From the NCBI GenBank assembly GCA_002499445.1, contig DALS01000064.1, forward strand, positions 283 to 64,282: a DNA stretch of 64,000 nt, given 5' to 3'. The notes under the pieces were generated by a model. It did no database searches. It was not told the origin of the DNA and saw only the letters and a program-made list of their open reading frames with translations. Source of the DNA: Methanosarcina sp. UBA293. GTDB taxonomy: Archaea; Halobacteriota; Methanosarcinia; Methanosarcinales; Methanosarcinaceae. The position numbers were made by a program, and so were the translations under genes. Position 1 is the first letter of the stretch, and each line of letters opens with the position of its first letter. This document shows positions 22,563 through 34,807 of this stretch, piece after piece.

Positions 22563-24803
22563 TTGAAAAGAATGAAAATTTCCCTGCTTAAGAAAATAAA
22601 ATCATTTCTGCTTGTGTTCATGATCTTGATTTCATGCCTACCTGCCAGCTCAGGTTTTGCTGCAGGAAGTGTCAATGCCCCTGAAATGCCACAGAACTGT
22701 ACATCTTCTGCTGAATTTGTAATTGAATCTGTGATTGAAACAGCCCCAATGAACCCTGACTTTCTGGAAAGCTGGAAACTTAGCTCGATTGAATCTTTTT
22801 CTTTTGGGAGTAAATACGAAAAGATTTCAGACACCGGGTATAAGCCTTCACCTGTAAAACTGTCAGGGCTTGCAAGCTCAGAAGGAAGAGTTTTGCTGAG
22901 AGCCTCAGGTTCAGAGCTACCACCTGTTTATGACCTGCGTAAAGAAAGGAAAGTAACAGCTGTAAAAGATCAGGGAAAGGCTGGAAGTTGCTGGGCCTTT
23001 TCAAGTATTGCTTCTCTTGAATCCTACATTCTGGGAAAAGAAGGAAAAAACTATGATTTTTCCGAAAACAACATGAAAAACCTCGCCTCAAAAAACTATC
23101 CAGAGGGTTTTGATTTTACCTCGGATGAGGGTGGAAATGCATTCATGTCAACAGCATACCTTTCCCGTTGGGATGGGCCTGTAAATGAATTTGATGATCC
23201 CTATAGTGAGCCCTCTACCTATTCACCCGCAGGGCTTCAGGTACAGAGACATGTGCAGGAGGTGCTTTTCCTACCTGAGAAAACTGAGCCTCTGGATAAC
23301 GAAGTTCTCAAAAGGGCGCTTCTGGAATATGGAGCTGTATACTCCACGATGTACTGGAACCCAGGGCATTATCAGGAAAAAAATTATACTTACCGATATA
23401 CCAAGGATCTGCCTGTCAATCATGCTGTGACCATTGTAGGCTGGGATGATTCTTTTGACAAAAATCTATTTATGCAAGTTCCTCCCGGAGATGGAGCTTT
23501 TATAGTGAAGAACAGCTGGGGTGATGTCTGGGGTCAAGAGGGGTACTTCTATATTTCCTACTACGACACAAAACTCGGGTACAATGAAAATGCCGTGTTC
23601 ACAGCTGAAGATCTGGATAATTATGATAATATCTACCAGTATGATCCTCTTGGGTGGGTGGTATCTAAAAAGTATTCAGAAAACCCCCTAGTTGCCTGGG
23701 GAGGCAATGTTTATTCCTCAGAAAAAAATGAAACCCTCAGAGCTGTAGGATTTTATACTACTGACCTCAATACGGCTTACGAGATATACATCTACAAAAA
23801 TCCTGTCTCAGGTCCTGTTAATTCGAGAAAAGGATTCATTGTACAGGAAAGCGGCCGATACACCTTCCCAGGATATCATACACATGTGTTGAATTCGGCT
23901 GTACCCATAAATGCAGGAGAGAGATTTTCAATAGTTATAAGATTCATTAACCCATCGGCTTCAGGTCCTCTTGCAGTAGAAGAACCTGTAGCCTATTACA
24001 GCAGCAAGGCAAGGGCCAATCCCGGAGAAAGCTACGTAAGTCCTAATGGAGTCAGATGGGAAGACATATCCAGCAACTCGAAAGCAAATCTCTGCATTAA
24101 AGCTTTCACAACAAGTAATGACTTTCCTGAAGCTGATTTTTCTTCAAACACTACCTCAGGAATGCGTCCTCTTACGATCCAGTTCACTGACCTTTCAAAC
24201 AACGCCTTTTCCTGGAAGTGGGATATGAACGGCGATGGGGAAACTGATTCAACAGTCCAGAACCCTGTCTACACCTACAGATCTTACGGGAATTATACCG
24301 TTTCTCTGACTATCGGTAACGGCAAAGGATTTGATTCCAAGACAAAACATGGTTACATAACAATAACTCCTCTCTCAATTAACTCAGCCAATCCCAGAAG
24401 GAATATTACAGGCTACATAGGGGAGAAGCAGGAGTTTAGTGTTAGTACAAACTATGCTTGCAATGTAAGCTGGTACTTTAATGGAGAAAACAGAGGTTCT
24501 GAATCTCAAGTAAAAAAGAGCTCATACTCAGAGAGTATCCATTCCCCAGGAATTTATAATATTACAGCAATTGCCAGAATTGGGGATGAAGAAGTTACAC
24601 AGAAATGGGAGTGGACAGTTCGCACCTGGAATCCCTGGGATAGTCCGGCTTCCCATGAAGGGAAAAAAATAAGTACTAAAGAAATACAGGAAGCTATCCA
24701 TATCTACCGAAATGGACTACAGATCCCTGAAACCGGAGCGGAACTAACGAAAGAAAGGCTCAAGGAACTTATAATTCACTGGAGGGAAGGCTCAGAGGAT
24801 TGA
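22563..24803 (+). CDS. Secreted C1A (papain-family) cysteine protease with lectin-like, PKD and C-terminal helical domains
   Basis: QGKAGSCWAFS, NHAVTIVGWDD, VKNSWG catalytic motifs; PKD WKWDMNGDG...NPVYTY; signal peptide. Confidence 0.92.
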   Translation: MKRMKISLLKKIKSFLLVFMILISCLPASSGFAAGSVNAPEMPQNCTSSAEFVIESVIETAPMNPDFLESWKLSSIESFSFGSKYEKISDTGYKPSPVKLSGLASSEGRVLLRASGSELPPVYDLRKERKVTAVKDQGKAGSCWAFSSIASLESYILGKEGKNYDFSENNMKNLASKNYPEGFDFTSDEGGNAFMSTAYLSRWDGPVNEFDDPYSEPSTYSPAGLQVQRHVQEVLFLPEKTEPLDNEVLKRALLEYGAVYSTMYWNPGHYQEKNYTYRYTKDLPVNHAVTIVGWDDSFDKNLFMQVPPGDGAFIVKNSWGDVWGQEGYFYISYYDTKLGYNENAVFTAEDLDNYDNIYQYDPLGWVVSKKYSENPLVAWGGNVYSSEKNETLRAVGFYTTDLNTAYEIYIYKNPVSGPVNSRKGFIVQESGRYTFPGYHTHVLNSAVPINAGERFSIVIRFINPSASGPLAVEEPVAYYSSKARANPGESYVSPNGVRWEDISSNSKANLCIKAFTTSNDFPEADFSSNTTSGMRPLTIQFTDLSNNAFSWKWDMNGDGETDSTVQNPVYTYRSYGNYTVSLTIGNGKGFDSKTKHGYITITPLSINSANPRRNITGYIGEKQEFSVSTNYACNVSWYFNGENRGSESQVKKSSYSESIHSPGIYNITAIARIGDEEVTQKWEWTVRTWNPWDSPASHEGKKISTKEIQEAIHIYRNGLQIPETGAELTKERLKELIIHWREGSED

Positions 24804-26844: not shown

Positions 26845-26875
26845 AAAAAAAGATAAGCAGCCTTAAAAGCTGCTT
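26845..26875 (-). terminator. Hairpin plus U-tract ending the surface-protein operon
   Basis: Minus strand AAGCAGC-TTTTAAG-GCTGCTT followed by ATCTTTTTTT. Confidence 0.65.
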
Positions 26876-26910: not shown

Positions 26911-28017
26911 TTACTTTCTTCTCAGGACCTGATACACTGCTCCAAGGGTTCCGATGGCTATTACAGACTCAAACCCTGGAATAGATCCCCATCTTGAGGA
27001 GTCTTTTGCATCAGATGCAGGGTTTGATTCCGGTTTTTTAGAGGGAGAGGTATCTTTCGAATTGGAAGGTTCGATTTCTATCTTCTCATCGGGTACAACG
27101 ATTGTGAAGGAGCCAAAGCCTGGAGTTTTAGACTCGAAGAAAACGTAAGTACTGTCTTCACCAACCTTTTTTGTTTCAAGCTTGTTCCAGGTCTTGTCGT
27201 AGTTCCAGAGAGCCAGAGAAGTTTCATCTGCTCCGGTATTCTTGAGCCAAGCCTTTTCAACTCTGAAACCAATAACTGCATTTTCGATGTTATCAGAGTT
27301 TGCGATTCCTCCTGAACCTACCCAGATATTCACATTTTTATAATCCGTGCCTTCAGGCAGGCTCGAAACCAGCTTGGACTGACCTTTCAGCATTTCAACA
27401 AGAGTAGTGACTTTTCCCAGAGTCTTTTTGGCATCAAACTCCACATACCTTATGCAGGTTACACCCTGTGGGAACTCGAACTTTACGTGCTGCCCAGCTG
27501 TGATAGATTTCTGAGACCGTTCTTTAGCCGCGACGTTGCTTTGGGGTTCAGGAGAAACACCTGCACCTCCGCCGCTTGATTTACCACCAGAGCCGCCAGA
27601 GCCGCCGCTGTAAGATTGACTGACAGTGATGGAACTTTCAGCAGGAAGAACAAGAGACTCAGTTTTGTTTATGTCTCTTAAAAGTCCCACAATTTTATAT
27701 GTGCCTGTTGAGGCTGGAGCTTTCAGGGTGTAGCTGAAGCTTTTTTCATTCATAAGCAGGAAGGAAACCTTGCTGCCATTTTCAGTTACGGCTCTTTCCG
27801 GCAGGGTAGAGCTAACAAATGTAAAGCCAGCAGGAAGTTTTTCAATTACTTGACCGGCAGCCCCATAATCAGCTACGTTGACTGTTACCTGGAACTCCTG
27901 ATTGGGACTAACCGTAGCAGGGGAAGTCCTTTCTGCACTGCCTGCACAAGCCGGGACAGCAGATAAGGTCAGCGCCAGGAGCAGAATAACAGCAAACTTA
28001 AACTTAAGTCGTTTCAT
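26911..28017 (-). CDS. PGF-pre-PGF domain surface protein with N-terminal beta-sandwich and PGF-CTERM anchor
   Basis: Signal peptide; S/G linker; VSPEPQSNV..KE...NVNIWVG...TPGFGSFTI; C-terminal IPGFESVIAIGTLGAVYQVLRRK; ATG overlaps the upstream TGA (ATGA). Confidence 0.88.
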   Translation of the reverse strand: MKRLKFKFAVILLLALTLSAVPACAGSAERTSPATVSPNQEFQVTVNVADYGAAGQVIEKLPAGFTFVSSTLPERAVTENGSKVSFLLMNEKSFSYTLKAPASTGTYKIVGLLRDINKTESLVLPAESSITVSQSYSGGSGGSGGKSSGGGAGVSPEPQSNVAAKERSQKSITAGQHVKFEFPQGVTCIRYVEFDAKKTLGKVTTLVEMLKGQSKLVSSLPEGTDYKNVNIWVGSGGIANSDNIENAVIGFRVEKAWLKNTGADETSLALWNYDKTWNKLETKKVGEDSTYVFFESKTPGFGSFTIVVPDEKIEIEPSNSKDTSPSKKPESNPASDAKDSSRWGSIPGFESVIAIGTLGAVYQVLRRK

Positions 28018-28841
28018 ATTCGATTCCACCCATCAGCAAAGTATGCACCCAGAACTGCATATTTAATCCCACTGGATACTTCGTTATTATTTACAAGGTT
28101 CTTAATTTCTTCAGGAGAGAAGACTCCATCGGAACCTCCAAACCTTGTTGCCAGTTCACTTTCTTTCAGTACCGTAATGGAAATACTTTCTTCATCTATG
28201 ACACTGCTTCCAGAGGGGGCAGCGGCCGTAAAGGCGAATTTGAACTCACCTGGTGTAGTACTTTTCACATTACAAGTATAGAGATCTCCACCTTCTGGCT
28301 TCAATGAAACCACGCCCTGTCCTATGGAGATAAGGTCGATAGTTACTGATGCTACTTCAGAGGATTTACCCACAACCTTTGCCCTGACAGCTGAGAAGTC
28401 CTTTCCGTCATTCAGGATGAATTTGGGGGATGCAGATAAAGTTTCTATATTAGGGGGTATAAAACTTCCATAGAAAGTCAGGTCAAGTTTAGCTGGCTCA
28501 GCTCCATGCTTGTAAGTTGCAGAAATAGGTTCGGATGCGACGCCTCCGAGTTTGAAGGTTATTTCTTTTCCATTATCTTTCTCGGTACCGTTAACTGAAA
28601 CTATATATCTTCCAGTCTTTTTAAGAGATTCTGAGCCAACAAGCTTGGAATCTATATATGCAGAGATTATAATTCCGGGACCTGCATTTGCAGCATCTCC
28701 TTTCAAGTCTCCTTGAAACACATAGGGGATAGGAGGGATAGGAGGAGGACTATTAGCAGATGCGGCCGGAACAAGGGACATGCCCAGTAGCAGAATAACC
28801 AGGCATGATAAAATTTTTAAATATTTGTCCTTGATCGTCAT
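28014..28841 (-). CDS. Secreted two-domain beta-sandwich protein with short helical tail, no membrane anchor
   Basis: Signal peptide ending PAASA; PPIPPIPYVFQG domain; Ig/invasin-like ASPKFILNDGKDFS domain; AGGTGA RBS. Confidence 0.82.
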   Translation of the reverse strand: MTIKDKYLKILSCLVILLLGMSLVPAASANSPPPIPPIPYVFQGDLKGDAANAGPGIIISAYIDSKLVGSESLKKTGRYIVSVNGTEKDNGKEITFKLGGVASEPISATYKHGAEPAKLDLTFYGSFIPPNIETLSASPKFILNDGKDFSAVRAKVVGKSSEVASVTIDLISIGQGVVSLKPEGGDLYTCNVKSTTPGEFKFAFTAAAPSGSSVIDEESISITVLKESELATRFGGSDGVFSPEEIKNLVNNNEVSSGIKYAVLGAYFADGWNRI

Positions 28842-28895
28842 TATGTCACCTTGAAATTTTAATATTATTTATGCAGACTTTTTCAAAAAAGTCCT

Positions 28896-29639
28896 TCAGG
28901 GATTCTTTCTAGATCCCCTCCCGAGATCAAATCCGAAAGCGAGCAGAAGTATGCCTGCAACCGCATAGAAAATTAGGAAACCTGGAGTACTTTCTGGTTT
29001 AGGAGAGTTTTCGGAAGATTCTGCTGCCTCTTTATCTTCGGAGTTTGCACCCGTATTTTTCAAAGCCGTTATATTCGGTTCAGGGATCGAAGTTTTAATG
29101 ACCTCGACTTTGGGATCCTCCGAGGAAACTTCCTGTTTTTTATTATCTGTCAAAGGTTCTGAACCTGTTTTTGAATTTGAATTACTTTTTGTGTTACTAT
29201 TCGAATTACCGTTTGAACCATTGTTTGAATTACTATTTGAATTACTTTCAGTAGTCTCGGTATAAACTACCTTACCATCAGGCAGTTCGAGGGAAACTAT
29301 ACTTCCGGATTCCCAGGCAACACTGCTTGTAGCATCTTTTCCGTCCACTTTAAAAGTAACCAGTTTTCCTTTATCTTCAGCAATACCAGGAATAACGAGA
29401 GAGTATTTTCCTGAGGAAGTATTTGCAAGATGCTCCTTGTCATTAAGGTAAGCTGCAATGACAGTCCCATTGGGAGCAGGCGTACCATCAATAAGAGCAA
29501 CCCCTGTCACTTGCATCGGAAGCATCGGGAGGGCTGGAGGAACATCCACTGCTGCCGTACATCCCTGGGAGAAAGCCAGGAAAAACAACAGTAATATAGA
29601 TGTTCTTAGCAGGCCATTTTTTAATATTTTATTCATCAT
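28896..29639 (-). CDS. Membrane-anchored surface protein with N/S-rich stalk and PGF-type sorting signal
   Basis: Signal peptide; PALPMLPMQVTG domain; SNSNSNSNNGSNGNSNS linker; TPGFLIFYAVAGILLLAF plus basic tail; GGAGGT RBS. Confidence 0.85.
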   Translation of the reverse strand: MMNKILKNGLLRTSILLLFFLAFSQGCTAAVDVPPALPMLPMQVTGVALIDGTPAPNGTVIAAYLNDKEHLANTSSGKYSLVIPGIAEDKGKLVTFKVDGKDATSSVAWESGSIVSLELPDGKVVYTETTESNSNSNSNNGSNGNSNSNTKSNSNSKTGSEPLTDNKKQEVSSEDPKVEVIKTSIPEPNITALKNTGANSEDKEAAESSENSPKPESTPGFLIFYAVAGILLLAFGFDLGRGSRKNP

Positions 29640-29664
29640 AGACCTCCAATTATACGCTAACAAC

Positions 29665-29704
29665 AAAAAGAAAAAAACTATTCAGCCTGAACAGGCTGAA
29701 CAGT
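29665..29704 (-). terminator. Intra-operon hairpin plus U-tract
   Basis: Minus strand ACTGTTCAGCCTG-TT-CAGGCTGAATAGT (one G-U pair) followed by TTTTTTCTTTTT. Confidence 0.65.
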
Positions 29705-29725
29705 CAGTTGTTCTGAAAATTAGCC

Positions 29726-32700
29726 TTACGGCGTCTCGTTCAAGGACTCGCTTGGATCAAAGCCTTCCGGCCACGTAGATGGATCCAAAGGATTAAAGTC
29801 AGGCGGAAGATCTCCGTTGCCTGAGCCATCGTCCTCATCGTACATCAGATCCAGATTATACGTGTTTTCGATGGATGCGTAGGTACCTCCATTCTTCACA
29901 AAGATCCAGTAGCCCTGTCCAGGAACCATATAGTCGTAAGACTGAAGCACTTTAACTGGCTCAGGATTGGCACCAATGGTTGGAAGGGGCATAGAGTCGT
30001 CTAGGCGCCCATCTGCCATAGCAGCAGTGATTATGCCGCCCCAGCCTTCATTGAGATTATAAGTGATGAGGCTGGAGAACTTGTAGTTTTCAGTAAGATC
30101 GGTATTGAAATCATTGAGCGAAGCCAGAGTTATGGACCAGGGTGCAGCATATGCAGAGGTGTGACCTATCATTTGCCATCCTGGTTTGAGAACAAGAGAG
30201 GCTGGCACATCAGGATTGGCACCATCAACTGACATCCCCTTGAACTTGGCATTAGTCACACAAGGTTCTTTGGCGTAGACCCAGTATCCCTTACATGGCT
30301 CGATAGTATCAGGGCATTGCCAGCACGCGCCGTCCCAGTAAATAACTATATTTCCTTCACCAAAGACCGATTCAGGACAGGCTTTTGATTCAACAAGTTT
30401 CTTAGGCACGGATTTAAGGTTCCAGCCCTGCTCAAGCATAATATTCATATCTTCATAGGTCTGTATGGGGCCGCACACGGAGAAAGCAGAGTTGTAGTTG
30501 CCAGCTTTATCGCGAGCAATGACAGCTACCCAGTAGTCTTTGCCGTAGACAAGGTCTTTTCCTTCGAGTGATTCAATACATAGATTACACAGACTCTTAT
30601 CTTGTGAATACCTTAATCTCTGATTTGGAGTAAGTGTCCCGTCGGTGTGAGTCTCGCGTCCATCTATCCTTACCTTTTGCATATCCTCAATACAGCCTGG
30701 TTTCGATGTGCTGATATAGACTTCATATGGCTCATCAGCAAGATCTGCGTCTGTACTTGCATTCCAGCTAACCATCAGCCCAGGATAATCCCTAGTAGAG
30801 GTCCAATCGGTAACACCCGGTGCATCTACAACATTCAGATTTGCCACACAAGCTGGGGCAACACTGTCAACTGAGAAATACTTCACATCAGGCTGGTAAG
30901 TTCTGCCGCTTGTACAGTCAGTAATAAGAACCGTCCAGGATACCTGCTGCTCGTCTTTCACAGATGCTTTTACAGAATAGCTGTCTGCACCAACAAGGAA
31001 GTCGCACTCGTCGCAAGAACCTCCTTCACAACAAACCGTATTATCTTTTTTATCGTCGCAGCTTGCATCTGCCTGCTTGTTGTTAATAAGAAGCTTGTAG
31101 TGGAAAGGCAGTCCTGCTCCTTCTCCATTCTTTCCATCGACCTTGAACTCAAACGTCGGGGTTGAGGTTACGAATCCTCCGTCAGGAGTCAAGAGAGTAA
31201 CTTTAAGTCCGTCAAGGCTTATATAGAATTTCCGGACTTCGCTTTTAGCTTTGTTTCCGGCTCCATCCTCAACTTCAACCGACCAGTTGTGAGCGCCATC
31301 TGCAAGCTGAATTTCCTTGATTACTGACTCTCCAGATCCAACATCCCCGGAAATTACATCATCTGGGAACAGATCATCCAAAAAGTCTTCAGGAACACCG
31401 TTCTCAGGAATACCATTCTCAGGGATATCACCCTCAGGAGTACCAGGGAATATTATTTCCTCCCAGGGCATACCAGGGAATAATTCCTCCCAGGGAATAC
31501 CATCGGGGAATATTTCATCCCAGGGAATTTCCCCAGAACCATCCTCATAATCATACCCAGGAATATAGCCAGGAATTTGATCATATACTCCAGCAGGTTT
31601 CCCATCTATGAAAAGTGTGTATCTGAGGCTAAGATCATCTTTATATTGAGCAGCTAAAGCATCTTCACAGATGAAGTTGAATTTAGTTTCAGGACCGATT
31701 ACCTCTTTGTAGCAGTCTGCAGGAGAAATAAGTTTCACACTGGGGCATTTTGTATCCACATACAGAGTTCTGAGACCACTGCCACCTGTGTTTCCTTGTT
31801 CGTCCCTCAATTTGACTTCCCAGGTGTATTTACCGTCAGCCAGATCAAGCTCAAATTGTTTATATGACCCGGATTTCAAAACCCCGTTAATTTTCTGGAC
31901 ACCATTGAGCTCGAAAGTGTAGGCAATATCCTTAGAACTGTCGTCATAAGCACTGAAATTGAACTTTACACAGCTCTTATTGACGAAATTTGACTCTGGT
32001 ATAACCAGTGTAAATTGTGGGCTCCGATAATCAAAGCTCGGATCAAAATCAATTCCGCCAGGGAAAGATTCGTCACCCAGCAAATTTTCAAGATCGTCAA
32101 AGCCAGAGACACCTATGTCTAGAGGACCACTTATGTCCTGTGGAATCTCATAATCATAACCAAAGGCTTTACCATCGTCACCTATTGGATTCATCTCAGC
32201 TTCAGTCACTGGAGTAGTGCCTACCAAGTTTGCATTACTGGCTCTGGGTAAACCACCGTCTTTAATCGATATTTTAGCGTGATCGACAGGCTCACTGAAA
32301 TTGGCAGTGATGTTTACAACTTTTCCCGGTATGAAAGGACTGGTTTCGTTGAGTCCGATATCAATGCTTAGATAGTCATCAATACCAAATTTAAATGCTT
32401 CAGGGTCTTTTGCAGGTTCACCATTCAGCAGCAGACTGTTATTTGCATCAAACGCATCGATGTCTACAGCCAGAGGACCACTTATTATGTCATTTGAAAT
32501 GGTGTAGATATAAGCAAAGGAGTTATCATCACCATCTAATGGACTCATCGAAGAATTGTTCATTAAAAATGAACCAGAGCTGTTAATGATCGATATAGTG
32601 GCGTGATCAACAGATGTATTGAAATCGACGGTGATATTTACAATATCACCCGGTATAACATCGGTTTTGTTATATGTGACATTAACCTCTGTATCTTCTT

Positions 32701-32773
32701 CAGCTGCACTTGCTGCCCCTATTAAAAGGGACATAATTAGCAGTGCACTAAATAGTATCAATCTTTGTTTCAT
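29726..32773 (-). CDS. Large secreted multi-Ig-like/FN3 acidic protein with GWNL-type C-terminal domain
   Basis: Signal peptide MKQRLILF...AASA; duplicated IPG.(I/V)VNIT domains; Ig-like repeats; LEQGWNLKSVP...GYWV / LKPGWQMIG...GYWIF; no C-terminal TM. Confidence 0.88.
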   Translation of the reverse strand: MKQRLILFSALLIMSLLIGAASAAEEDTEVNVTYNKTDVIPGDIVNITVDFNTSVDHATISIINSSGSFLMNNSSMSPLDGDDNSFAYIYTISNDIISGPLAVDIDAFDANNSLLLNGEPAKDPEAFKFGIDDYLSIDIGLNETSPFIPGKVVNITANFSEPVDHAKISIKDGGLPRASNANLVGTTPVTEAEMNPIGDDGKAFGYDYEIPQDISGPLDIGVSGFDDLENLLGDESFPGGIDFDPSFDYRSPQFTLVIPESNFVNKSCVKFNFSAYDDSSKDIAYTFELNGVQKINGVLKSGSYKQFELDLADGKYTWEVKLRDEQGNTGGSGLRTLYVDTKCPSVKLISPADCYKEVIGPETKFNFICEDALAAQYKDDLSLRYTLFIDGKPAGVYDQIPGYIPGYDYEDGSGEIPWDEIFPDGIPWEELFPGMPWEEIIFPGTPEGDIPENGIPENGVPEDFLDDLFPDDVISGDVGSGESVIKEIQLADGAHNWSVEVEDGAGNKAKSEVRKFYISLDGLKVTLLTPDGGFVTSTPTFEFKVDGKNGEGAGLPFHYKLLINNKQADASCDDKKDNTVCCEGGSCDECDFLVGADSYSVKASVKDEQQVSWTVLITDCTSGRTYQPDVKYFSVDSVAPACVANLNVVDAPGVTDWTSTRDYPGLMVSWNASTDADLADEPYEVYISTSKPGCIEDMQKVRIDGRETHTDGTLTPNQRLRYSQDKSLCNLCIESLEGKDLVYGKDYWVAVIARDKAGNYNSAFSVCGPIQTYEDMNIMLEQGWNLKSVPKKLVESKACPESVFGEGNIVIYWDGACWQCPDTIEPCKGYWVYAKEPCVTNAKFKGMSVDGANPDVPASLVLKPGWQMIGHTSAYAAPWSITLASLNDFNTDLTENYKFSSLITYNLNEGWGGIITAAMADGRLDDSMPLPTIGANPEPVKVLQSYDYMVPGQGYWIFVKNGGTYASIENTYNLDLMYDEDDGSGNGDLPPDFNPLDPSTWPEGFDPSESLNETP

Positions 32774-33733
32774 ATTTTCACCTAGATTCCGCAAATATCC
32801 AAATTTTGTTCCAGTTTAAACATTATGTAATATACTTATTAAATAATATAATTGAGTTGAAAGATATAGCAGATCCCAGCTATTAAATAGTCTAGACAAA
32901 CAGCCCAATAATATTAAGTTAGTGGGAGACTTAGATATTAAATAAACTTCGACTGTTTGATAATTATAGTTTTTACTTTACCCCTATTTTTCTAACCAAA
33001 CCCCCTATAGGTAATTAAACAGATAGTATCATTATCTGTTCGGTTAATAAGAAACCCAAGGCTCCTACGCAATCGTTTTTGGCAGAAGTGGGTAGTATCT
33101 GATGCGGAATTAGCCGCCTTATCGATTCTTGTTGCCCAGAATGACTGTTGACCCCGTTTTTGCACCCATATTAATCAATAGTCCTAGGCATGAGACACGT
33201 GCCCTGCAAAAAAATCAAACGCTTGCAAATAGCGGAAATTTAGCTTACAGTAAATCTCCATCTTTGATGACAGGCACATATCTGTATATATTATCTTATG
33301 ATGATAATATAGATAAGATTGCACAATAACTGATATAAATCTTTCTGAAAGATGAAGGTAACTAAATTTAATAAGATCTAAAAAAGAAAATTCAAAGTAT
33401 GTTGACAAAATTATTTATATTTTTAAGGCTAGAAAAACCAATATTTGGAAGTTAATTTCATTTGCAGAGTACAAAAATTTTCATTAAAATTGCAGAAAAT
33501 TGTAGACGCTATTAATGCGATGCTATTAATTATAGAACTCTTAAGACTCTTAAGTCTGAAAATCAAGAAACCGTATATTTTTTTAAAAAATTGAATGCTC
33601 ACAAACTTAAAGTTTGGAAAAAACATAGTTTAAACAAAAACGTTTTTTATGCAAAAGAAATGGGGGGCTTAAAATTCGATATACTTTTCAGGATTCTACT
33701 GATTTTCCAGTTCAAAGAGACTTTATCCAGGAT

Positions 33734-34807
33734 ATGCAGGACTTTATAAAGATTTCAAATGAAATCATCCCTCTGGAAAAATCAGCTATAACTATAAAAA
33801 ATAAGAATCAAGAAAGGCTTGAATTTTTCGAAAAAAGAATTCAAGAAATTGATCTATTTGAGAAGGACATAAGGAACTCTATTGGAAACCTCACAGCTGA
33901 AGTATACGCACCTGAAATTCTAGAAGTCAAAGAGAGAACTCTTGAGACCTCCTCAAGCGTGGCGCTGGCAAAGAAAAACGAAAAACTTGCAGAGCTTGAC
34001 AGAGAAAACAAACTGAATCTTATGGAAACACAACAAATATATACAAGAATATTCTCATCCCTTAGTCCTTTTTTTGAAGACAGTATATATGGAGCTCAAA
34101 ATGCGTACTACGCCTTCATAGAGGATAAAACGCTGAGGGGAAAGCAGATCAGTTTTGTTGACAATATACAGTACGAATTTGAACTAATTTTTACACAGGA
34201 TACTCTAAAAGTAAAAGACCTGCAAAACTTGACTTTGCCTATATGGACAAAGAGTGGAATTCTATCTAGGGAGAGAAAAGTAAAAAGACTCGATGTTTCC
34301 GACTTCTATATCACGAATGTTGAGTACGAGGGAAATAATCTAAGAACCGTGTTCGAAGACAGGAATGCGGAAAACAGATTCATTGTCTCATCGGATGAGA
34401 AAGCTTTTCTGATCATGTACAGAGACTACGAGATTACACGAGATGAAGAACTGGCTGCTGATTTAGATAGAGATTCAGTCGATAAGTTCATAATAAAAAT
34501 AAAGGAGTTCTTCATAGAATCCGTGGTGTCTAAAAAGCTCAAACGTATAACACTTGACGGAAAAAACGTAATTGAAGAAAATAGAGTTTTTGATTGTCTT
34601 AAGTTAATTGCTTCCATATACGGAAAACTGGTAATTGAGTGCCTTGAAAAAGGATATACTGAGGGAGAAATTACCATCAAGATCGAGGAGCCTGAAGGGA
34701 TCAGGACAGAGAAATATCTTGAGAAATCGGAAGTTTCCAGAGAACTCTCAACCATTGGAAGTGAAGGACAGGAGCTCGCCAAACTCTTGAGAGTTGTTGA
34801 ACCTTGA
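33734..34807 (+). CDS. Hypothetical protein (357 aa)
   Basis: Long ORF with ordinary composition, 31 bp upstream of mgtA; no motif recognised. Confidence 0.8.
   Translation: MQDFIKISNEIIPLEKSAITIKNKNQERLEFFEKRIQEIDLFEKDIRNSIGNLTAEVYAPEILEVKERTLETSSSVALAKKNEKLAELDRENKLNLMETQQIYTRIFSSLSPFFEDSIYGAQNAYYAFIEDKTLRGKQISFVDNIQYEFELIFTQDTLKVKDLQNLTLPIWTKSGILSRERKVKRLDVSDFYITNVEYEGNNLRTVFEDRNAENRFIVSSDEKAFLIMYRDYEITRDEELAADLDRDSVDKFIIKIKEFFIESVVSKKLKRITLDGKNVIEENRVFDCLKLIASIYGKLVIECLEKGYTEGEITIKIEEPEGIRTEKYLEKSEVSRELSTIGSEGQELAKLLRVVEP

Follow-up and report, generated by a model that had tools for sequence, protein, structure and literature searches.

A four-gene cluster of Methanosarcina that may encode a surface assembly of anchored stalks and separately encoded partner proteins

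The 64,000-nucleotide stretch of DNA analysed in this work (hereafter the window; contig DALS01000064.1 of Methanosarcina sp. UBA293, positions 283 to 64,282) contains a cluster of four genes, named here g1 to g4, which, as far as can be judged from sequence comparison, stand an about even chance of encoding one surface assembly, in which two lipid-anchored stalks would hold two unanchored proteins by means of plug-and-socket domains. Non-covalent display of the unanchored proteins by the anchored ones had been suggested in an original prediction made from the DNA sequence alone, together with a dockerin-like nature of the g3 tail and, by implication, a cohesin as its receptor. Comparative genomics (the context, loss, fusions and neighbourhoods of the genes) argues for the display itself, while the literal dockerin and the implied cohesin assignments do not stand.

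The layout of the cluster turned out to be as predicted. The four co-oriented genes are closely packed open reading frames (ORFs) on the minus strand at 26911-32773, with Shine-Dalgarno-like AGGTGA or GGAGGT sequences ahead of g1, g2 and g3 and a weaker GGGTGGA ahead of g4, and the stop codon of g3 overlaps the start codon of g4 in an ATGA. All four products begin with N-terminal segments resembling Sec-type signal peptides, and those of g1 and g3 have no C-terminal hydrophobic segment, in line with the absence of an anchor. With 86 homologues for g3, all from Methanosarcina, and 78 for g1, the genes can be regarded as real. The genes and the parts of their products are:

29726-32773, minus strand: g1, 1015 amino acids (aa) counted from ATG; secreted, unanchored, multi-domain
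29849-30463, minus strand: g1C, the C-terminal domain of g1, aa 771-975 (205 aa), with two GWN...GYW units; proposed plug for the N-domain
28896-29639, minus strand: g2, 247 aa; signal peptide, N-domain, Ser/Asn-rich stalk and PGF-type anchor
29274-29549 (approximate limits), minus strand: N-domain of g2, a paralogue of the g3 N-domain
28899-28988, minus strand: PGF-type anchor of g2, TPGF followed by a transmembrane (TM) segment and RGSRKNP, read from the sequence
28014-28841, minus strand: g3, 275 aa; signal peptide, N-domain, immunoglobulin (Ig)-like domain and three-helix tail; unanchored
28467-28736, minus strand: N-domain of g3, aa 36-125, beta-sandwich with strands at 40-123 and pLDDT (the per-residue confidence of the model) >88 in the AlphaFold2 (AF2) model
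28017-28166, minus strand: helical tail of g3, aa 226-275 (50 aa); proposed plug for g4N
26911-28017, minus strand: g4, 368 aa; signal peptide, head domain g4N, Gly-rich linker, PGF-pre-PGF domain and PGF-type anchor
27613-27936, minus strand: g4N, aa 28-135, BatD/DUF11-like; proposed socket
27097-27549, minus strand: PGF-pre-PGF stalk domain of g4 (TIGR04213, E 2.7e-56)
26914-26982, minus strand: PGF-type anchor of g4, IPGF followed by a TM segment and RRK

The link between g3 and g4 is seen in genomes where the two genes have been joined. Full in-frame g3::g4 fusions were found in MSH10X1 (genome G239), G252 and G258, with the junction (marked by a slash) reading ...YFAD/ALY... in the former two and ...YFADGWDRI/LYAAQ... 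in the last, and since this different junction indicates an independent event, the genes have been fused at least twice independently. In each of these fusions the signal peptide of g3 is retained and that of g4 is gone, as might be expected of a functional fusion. Genome G227 possesses a single ORF of 352 aa in which the signal peptide and N-domain of g3 are followed by the linker, PGF-pre-PGF domain and anchor of g4; the Ig-like domain and tail of g3 have been deleted there together with the signal peptide and g4N of g4, and g2 is absent too. It can be argued from the fusions that g3 and g4 would together equal an anchored N-domain protein made in two pieces, and the pattern suggests that the tail and g4N may constitute a joint that is no longer needed when a covalent link takes its place.

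Nine Methanosarcina species share the order g1-g2-g3-g4, which is weak evidence when taken alone because the genes flanking the cluster are likewise syntenic within the genus. The cluster is also present at 36-46% identity on a divergent Methanosarcinaceae contig (L011), and in Methanolobus sp. WCC5 it adjoins nif genes, which is a different genomic context, and consists of g1 (1669 aa), two anchored proteins of the g2 type, g3 (768 aa, with additional Ig repeats) and g4. The complete Methanosarcina genome G226 retains the flanking genes with none of the four between them and has no g4N anywhere, the cluster having been lost there as a unit. The site which it occupies in other Methanosarcina harbors an insertion sequence (IS)-like integrase gene in G226 (L079:4609-5526).

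A profile search for distant g3-like proteins among 1.84 billion representatives revealed proteins consisting of a signal peptide, an N-domain and an Ig-like domain and ending in either a Pfam dockerin or a shorter EF-loop-helix module. The g3 tail thus occupies exactly the position at which these distant relatives bear a docking tag. Where the contigs are readable, the gene that follows the distant g3-like gene codes for a Pfam cohesin protein, and upstream lie genes for a PGF-anchored N-domain protein of the g2 type and for the end of a protein bearing g1C. The g3 tail itself is modelled by AF2 as three helices (residues 227-234, 243-250 and 257-268; pLDDT of the block 86-97), and it is conserved like folded domains, with a mean column identity of 0.75-0.77 vs 0.69 for the Ig-like domain of g3.

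To see g4N in other surroundings, 18 loci non-orthologous to g4 were sampled from several genera. In 17 of them an adjacent and often overlapping gene carries an EF-loop-helix module (an example is IPGDLNKDYEISRAELSDAIISYM) belonging to the family called here mini-dockerin, which was delimited in this analysis from the N-termini of binding proteins and from two-repeat helical tails; according to hhalign, the two kinds of module are one family (probability 94.9%, E 4e-8). In most of the loci the mini-dockerin is the N-terminal module of the mature form of an ABC-transporter binding protein devoid of a membrane anchor, such proteins belonging to two unrelated families, SBP_bac_5 and Peripla_BP_2. 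Two operons contain a second paralogue of the binding protein which has no module and possesses an N-terminal TM anchor and a linker instead, and this swap of an anchor for the module arguably serves as an internal control for the tethering role of the latter. In other genera, scaffolds consisting of three to four g4N copies and g1C are encoded directly after large proteins that end in two-repeat forms of this tag.

The domain composition of g1 includes Big_13 Ig-like repeats (PF19077, 43.9 bits with a cut-off of 27), an acidic Pro/Trp-rich linker, an FnIII-like region and g1C, to which no Pfam family was matched. The end of the gene beyond g1C (29726-29850) codes for short acidic TWP(E/S/V/A)GF(D/E/N) repeats, the number of which varies from 0 to 4 depending on the species (L003, L005, L009 and the window). 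g1C is present in 137 of 392 Methanosarcinia genomes (22 of 49 genera), always at the C-terminus of secreted proteins, the bodies of which differ and are made of Ig repeats, two to three cohesins, or three to four g4N copies. Directly downstream of the g1C gene, one or more N-domain genes, mostly with a PGF-type anchor, were found in 28 of 35 sampled loci. With few N-domain genes per genome, the probability of this adjacency arising by chance is estimated at well below 1%, and in L055, L057 and L075 both domains are part of a single polypeptide. Judging by these loci, g1C and the N-domain are the invariant core of this gene neighbourhood, and their adjacency and fusion suggest that the heads of g2 and g3 hold g1.

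The N-domains of g2 and g3 are about 90 aa long and about 33% identical to each other; no Pfam family was assigned to them. A hidden Markov model (HMM) of the domain finds g2 at E 8e-9 and matches only g2 and g3 in this genome. The HMMs of the g3 tail and g1C, as well as that of the tail of the protease described below, likewise match only their own genes, while the one of g4N finds one extra copy on contig C38. The idea that the g3 tail is a tag common to many proteins of this genome was rejected, its HMM matching g3 alone. In the AF2 model of g3 (mean pLDDT 85) the N-domain is a complete sandwich with pLDDT 88-95. The matches of this model in a Foldseek search of PDB were all generic ones (tandem Ig, FnIII, titin and intimin) and uninformative for the tail, and nothing meaningful was obtained when g1, g4 and the g3 profile were searched by sequence against PDB chains.

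The description of g4 as a beta-sandwich on a PGF-pre-PGF stalk was borne out by profile matches. The head matches BatD (PF13584) with 25.8 bits against a cut-off of 24.1 when the domain is searched alone (22.7 bits in the whole protein), and the stalk, residues 161-311 of a 372-aa form, matches TIGR04213 with 189.8 bits (cut-off 28). No match to cohesin (PF00963) was obtained in the heads of g2 and g4. The predicted PGF-type anchors are visible at the C-terminal ends of g2 (...STPGFLIFYAVAGILLLAFGFDLGRGSRKNP) and g4 (...SIPGFESVIAIGTLGAVYQVLRRK) as a PGF motif, a TM segment and a basic tail, although their profile scores are under the curated cut-offs, and archaeosortase A (ArtA) is encoded in the genome (TIGR04125, 261.5 bits with a cut-off of 75, C23:29182-30015). 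There are ten PGF-pre-PGF proteins in the genome, g4 included, with unrelated passenger domains. The combination of PGF-pre-PGF and PGF tail is, in other words, a generic stalk cassette of this genome (ten loci), its passengers including PKD repeats, a beta-helix and polysaccharide-deacetylase-like, metallo-beta-lactamase-like and beta-propeller-like domains.

Several results speak against a single anchored assembly of this kind. The g4 tail scores 13.1 bits against PF18204 (cut-off 18.8), the g2 tail does not match this family, and TIGR04126 matches neither of them; the score of the g4 tail against Heimdall-CTERM, 20 bits, is likewise below the cut-off of 24. The g3 tail has no acidic residues at EF-loop positions 1 and 3 and is missed by the mini-dockerin HMM at E values up to 5, and its alignment with the two-repeat mini-dockerin tails by hhalign is weak (probability 18%, P 1.3e-3), covering only 16 columns, although in the expected register. 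The AF2 model of g1C, built from a 12-sequence alignment, is unusable (pLDDT 39). The fusions show functional linkage, but leave the contacting surfaces undefined.

A further point on the same side concerns transcription. The terminator described in the original prediction as shared by all four genes is indeed seen after g4, but a second conserved hairpin with a T-run is located already after g1:

26855-26875, minus strand: hairpin with T7 after g4, terminator-like (hairpin scan)
29676-29705, minus strand: hairpin (13 pairs) with a T-run between g1 and g2, terminator or attenuator candidate (scan)

The latter is kept in all nine Methanosarcina loci, with analogous hairpins in Methanolobus (L010) and L011, and throughout L001-L011 its stem is conserved and its loop variable. 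With such a terminator-like element between g1 and the other three genes, the cluster may not be transcribed as one simple unit, and the hairpin could be an attenuator setting the ratio of g1 to g2-g4. There is also a T6 hairpin 3' of g2. On the other side of g1, an AT-rich region of about 940 bp with a GC content of about 0.35 and no long ORF (32795-33733) separates it from a divergently oriented conserved gene (33734-34807, 357 aa), to which no family was assigned.

Some other genes of this and related genomes carry modules of the same kinds. Near the cluster, at 22563-24803 on the plus strand of the window, there is a gene coding for a secreted papain-family (C1) protease with a lectin-like domain and PKD domains, which ends in a two-repeat helical tail (ISTKEIQEAIHIYRNG...LTKERLKELIIHWREG) of the mini-dockerin family. 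On contig C38 (24157-26714) the ORF of a small anchored g4N protein (246 aa) runs into the start of the gene for an SBP_bac_5 binding protein, which has no TM anchor and begins in its mature form with an EF-loop-helix module (VIPGDSSGDTCVSDEELASSILSYM...HLSAEELSLAAHNF); downstream of the binding-protein gene there are ORFs of the size of ABC permeases and ATPases. The only Pfam Dockerin_1 match in the genome (28.7 bits) is located on contig C51 (99622-100463), where it represents the N-terminus of a Peripla_BP_2-like binding protein split over two frames, beside ABC-transporter-sized ORFs. In other genera, large secreted proteins with three internal repeats (motifs CWEPCGTKVEQCD and GDIRLT) are encoded just upstream of cohesin- or g4N-repeat scaffolds (L053:5147-7393, L058:4684-7365, L059:10236-12722, L075:10463-12718, L076:2465-4771, and 708-725-aa ORFs in L095 and L096). 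These proteins end in dockerin or mini-dockerin tails and have no Pfam, NCBIfam or PDB sequence match; a suspected identity with the S-layer proteins of Methanosarcinales (DUF1608) is unsupported by these searches and is not claimed here.

The evidence has to be weighed against a simpler explanation, according to which the cluster codes for four co-regulated but physically independent surface proteins, with g2 and g4 being ordinary archaeosortase substrates and g1 and g3 being secreted adhesins or matrix proteins which bind the S-layer, methanochondroitin or external ligands. It agrees with the generic nature of a stalk carrying ten unrelated passengers, with the occurrence of g1C at the end of many different proteins class-wide, as in a generic wall-binding module, and with the syntenic flanks in Methanosarcina and the terminator-like site after g1. 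Nevertheless, it seems unlikely, considering that the cluster is kept in another context in Methanolobus, that the N-domain and g1C are adjacent in most of the sampled loci and even fused in single proteins, and that the independent g3::g4 fusions, one of which removes the tail and g4N together, would be left unexplained. Somewhat less likely still, the g4 head might be a socket for other mini-dockerin cargo, such as the C1 protease or binding proteins, with g3 being a separate component of an anchored complex and its tail serving, for example, for oligomerisation. The only HMM-recognisable mini-dockerins in the genome are those of the C1 protease and the C38 binding protein, the g3 tail being missed, and the protease is syntenic with the cluster in five of nine Methanosarcina loci. 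At the same time no such protease is encoded near the cluster in Methanolobus and L011, the C38 binding protein is accompanied by an adjacent g4N anchor of its own, and g3 and g4 are translationally coupled and repeatedly fused. The G226 protease keeps an intact tail without g4 or any g4N, and the idea that the protease docks on g4 therefore finds no support.

Another arrangement, a short pilus-like fibre in which the N-domain proteins would polymerise by donor-strand exchange with g2 or g4 at the base and g1 as the tip adhesin, is brought to mind by the conserved (I/L)PxxPxxFxG strand with which the N-domain begins at the mature N-terminus, and by the two to three N-domain genes per cluster in a layout resembling tip/shaft/base pilin operons. 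It is considered very unlikely: no strand appears to be missing from the N-domain of g3, which is complete in the AF2 model, the signal peptides of g2 and g3 are Sec-type and not class III, and the cluster contains neither an assembly chaperone nor a dedicated sortase gene. A bona fide but divergent cohesin-dockerin pair, in which the g3 tail would be a genuine dockerin binding Ca2+ and either g4N or the N-domain a genuine cohesin, is hardly credible, even though the D-G-x-F-S-x-x-E-I stretch of the tail agrees with six EF-loop positions (5, 6, 8, 9, 12 and 13) and true dockerins are found at the same place in distant relatives of g3. What remains of the original prediction here is that the tail is helical; its membership among EF-hands or dockerins fails both profile and hhalign tests. 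The tail has no match to Dockerin_1 (PF00404), and the putative sockets none to Cohesin, at E up to 0.1, and hhalign probabilities are 0.1% for the tail vs the dockerins of the distant relatives and 0.2% for g4N vs cohesins (36 and 11 sequences, respectively). The tail possesses a single EF-loop-like segment, FGGSDGVFSPEE, in which ligand positions 1 and 3 are occupied by F and G, and its module of about 40 aa has three helices vs the two Ca2+-binding F-hand loops (DxNxDGxIxxxD) of dockerins, which arise by duplication, are each succeeded by a helix and take up about 60-70 aa. No Pfam cohesin was found in the whole genome at E up to 0.01.

With the preferred reading, that of one anchored assembly, the proteins would be arranged as follows. 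g2 and g4 would be exported, and archaeosortase A would probably attach them to a lipid by way of the PGF-type tails; a flexible stalk would present the head domain of each. The helical tail of g3 would plug into the g4N head of g4, so that g3 and g4 would make up the two-piece anchored N-domain protein, this joint being functionally like that of a dockerin in a cohesin, with neither module belonging to those families. The N-domains of g2 (directly) and of g3 (via g4) would hold g1 through g1C. What the analysis shows directly is the structure of the genes, their domains, conservation and fusions, and the statistics of their neighbourhoods. All contacts between the proteins, the anchoring to lipid and a display of g1 as adhesin or scaffold are inferred, the contacts being drawn from gene context, fusions and conservation.

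It is tentatively proposed, as a broader idea that is possible rather than probable, that two undescribed pairs, g4N with EF-loop-helix tags and g1C with the N-domain, replace cohesin-dockerin in Methanosarcinaceae and build a three-tier surface assembly across Methanosarcinia, with the operon in the window being a specialised case and the g3 tail a degenerate form of the tag. The former pair would keep large surface proteins, and ABC-transporter binding proteins that otherwise have no anchor, on lipid-anchored stalks, and the latter would fix scaffold proteins to PGF-anchored stalks.

Non-cellulosomal cohesin-dockerin modules have been published in archaea, including the related anaerobic methanotrophic archaea (ANME), and dockerin-tagged ABC binding proteins and scaffoldin-like proteins have been described in ANME (Timmers 2017, PMC5244752; Chadwick 2022, PMC9012536, citing Peer 2009, Bayer 1999 and Haimovitz 2008). 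The cluster resembles the cohesin-dockerin display of Archaeoglobus and ANME-1/-2 in that anchorless secreted proteins are encoded beside anchored partners, with the tag at a terminus of the cargo, and its distant relatives even bear Pfam cohesin and dockerin modules. Unlike in that display, the four proteins of the window contain neither module: a BatD/DUF11-like sandwich would act as the socket and a helical tail of about 40 aa without a complete Ca2+ loop as the plug, and the second putative pair, g1C with the N-domain, has no counterpart in the described systems. In bacterial cellulosomes, enzymes carry a dockerin that is bound by a primary scaffoldin, which is in turn held by an anchoring scaffoldin fixed by SLH domains or a sortase. 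Relatives of the cluster similarly have three tiers, namely tagged cargo, a repeated-socket scaffold with g1C, and an anchored N-domain protein, and the anchoring enzyme is likewise sortase-like, in this case an archaeosortase. The window differs from cellulosomes in that it encodes no carbohydrate-active enzymes, g1 has Ig-like repeats and not socket repeats, and the domain families are other ones. As regards known PGF-CTERM/ArtA substrates, g4 is a full TIGR04213 member, both g2 and g4 have PGF, TM and basic tails, and ArtA is encoded in the genome, but the tails score below the curated PGF-CTERM cut-offs, and the description of the PGF-pre-PGF family covers anchoring only and not a receptor stalk for a separately encoded partner. 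In the searchable literature no description was found of the four-gene cluster, g1C, the N-domain, or a BatD-like socket paired with an EF-loop-helix tag, which agrees with the earlier remark that nothing like this cluster had been described in Methanosarcina.

The retention of binding proteins, proteases and adhesins on the surface of archaea without an outer membrane is only partly understood, the known means being direct anchoring by a lipid or a TM segment and, in a few groups such as ANME, cohesin-dockerin pairs. If the proposed assembly is true, the domain pairs would represent new orthogonal protein-docking modules, and the same sockets would tether binding proteins for nutrient uptake. 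Genetically tractable species of Methanosarcina would then offer, in only four genes, a model of modular surface display that relies on new domain pairs. Surface architecture, aggregation and the contacts of cells with one another or with minerals would thereby become accessible to experiment in methanogens and in the methane oxidisers related to them.

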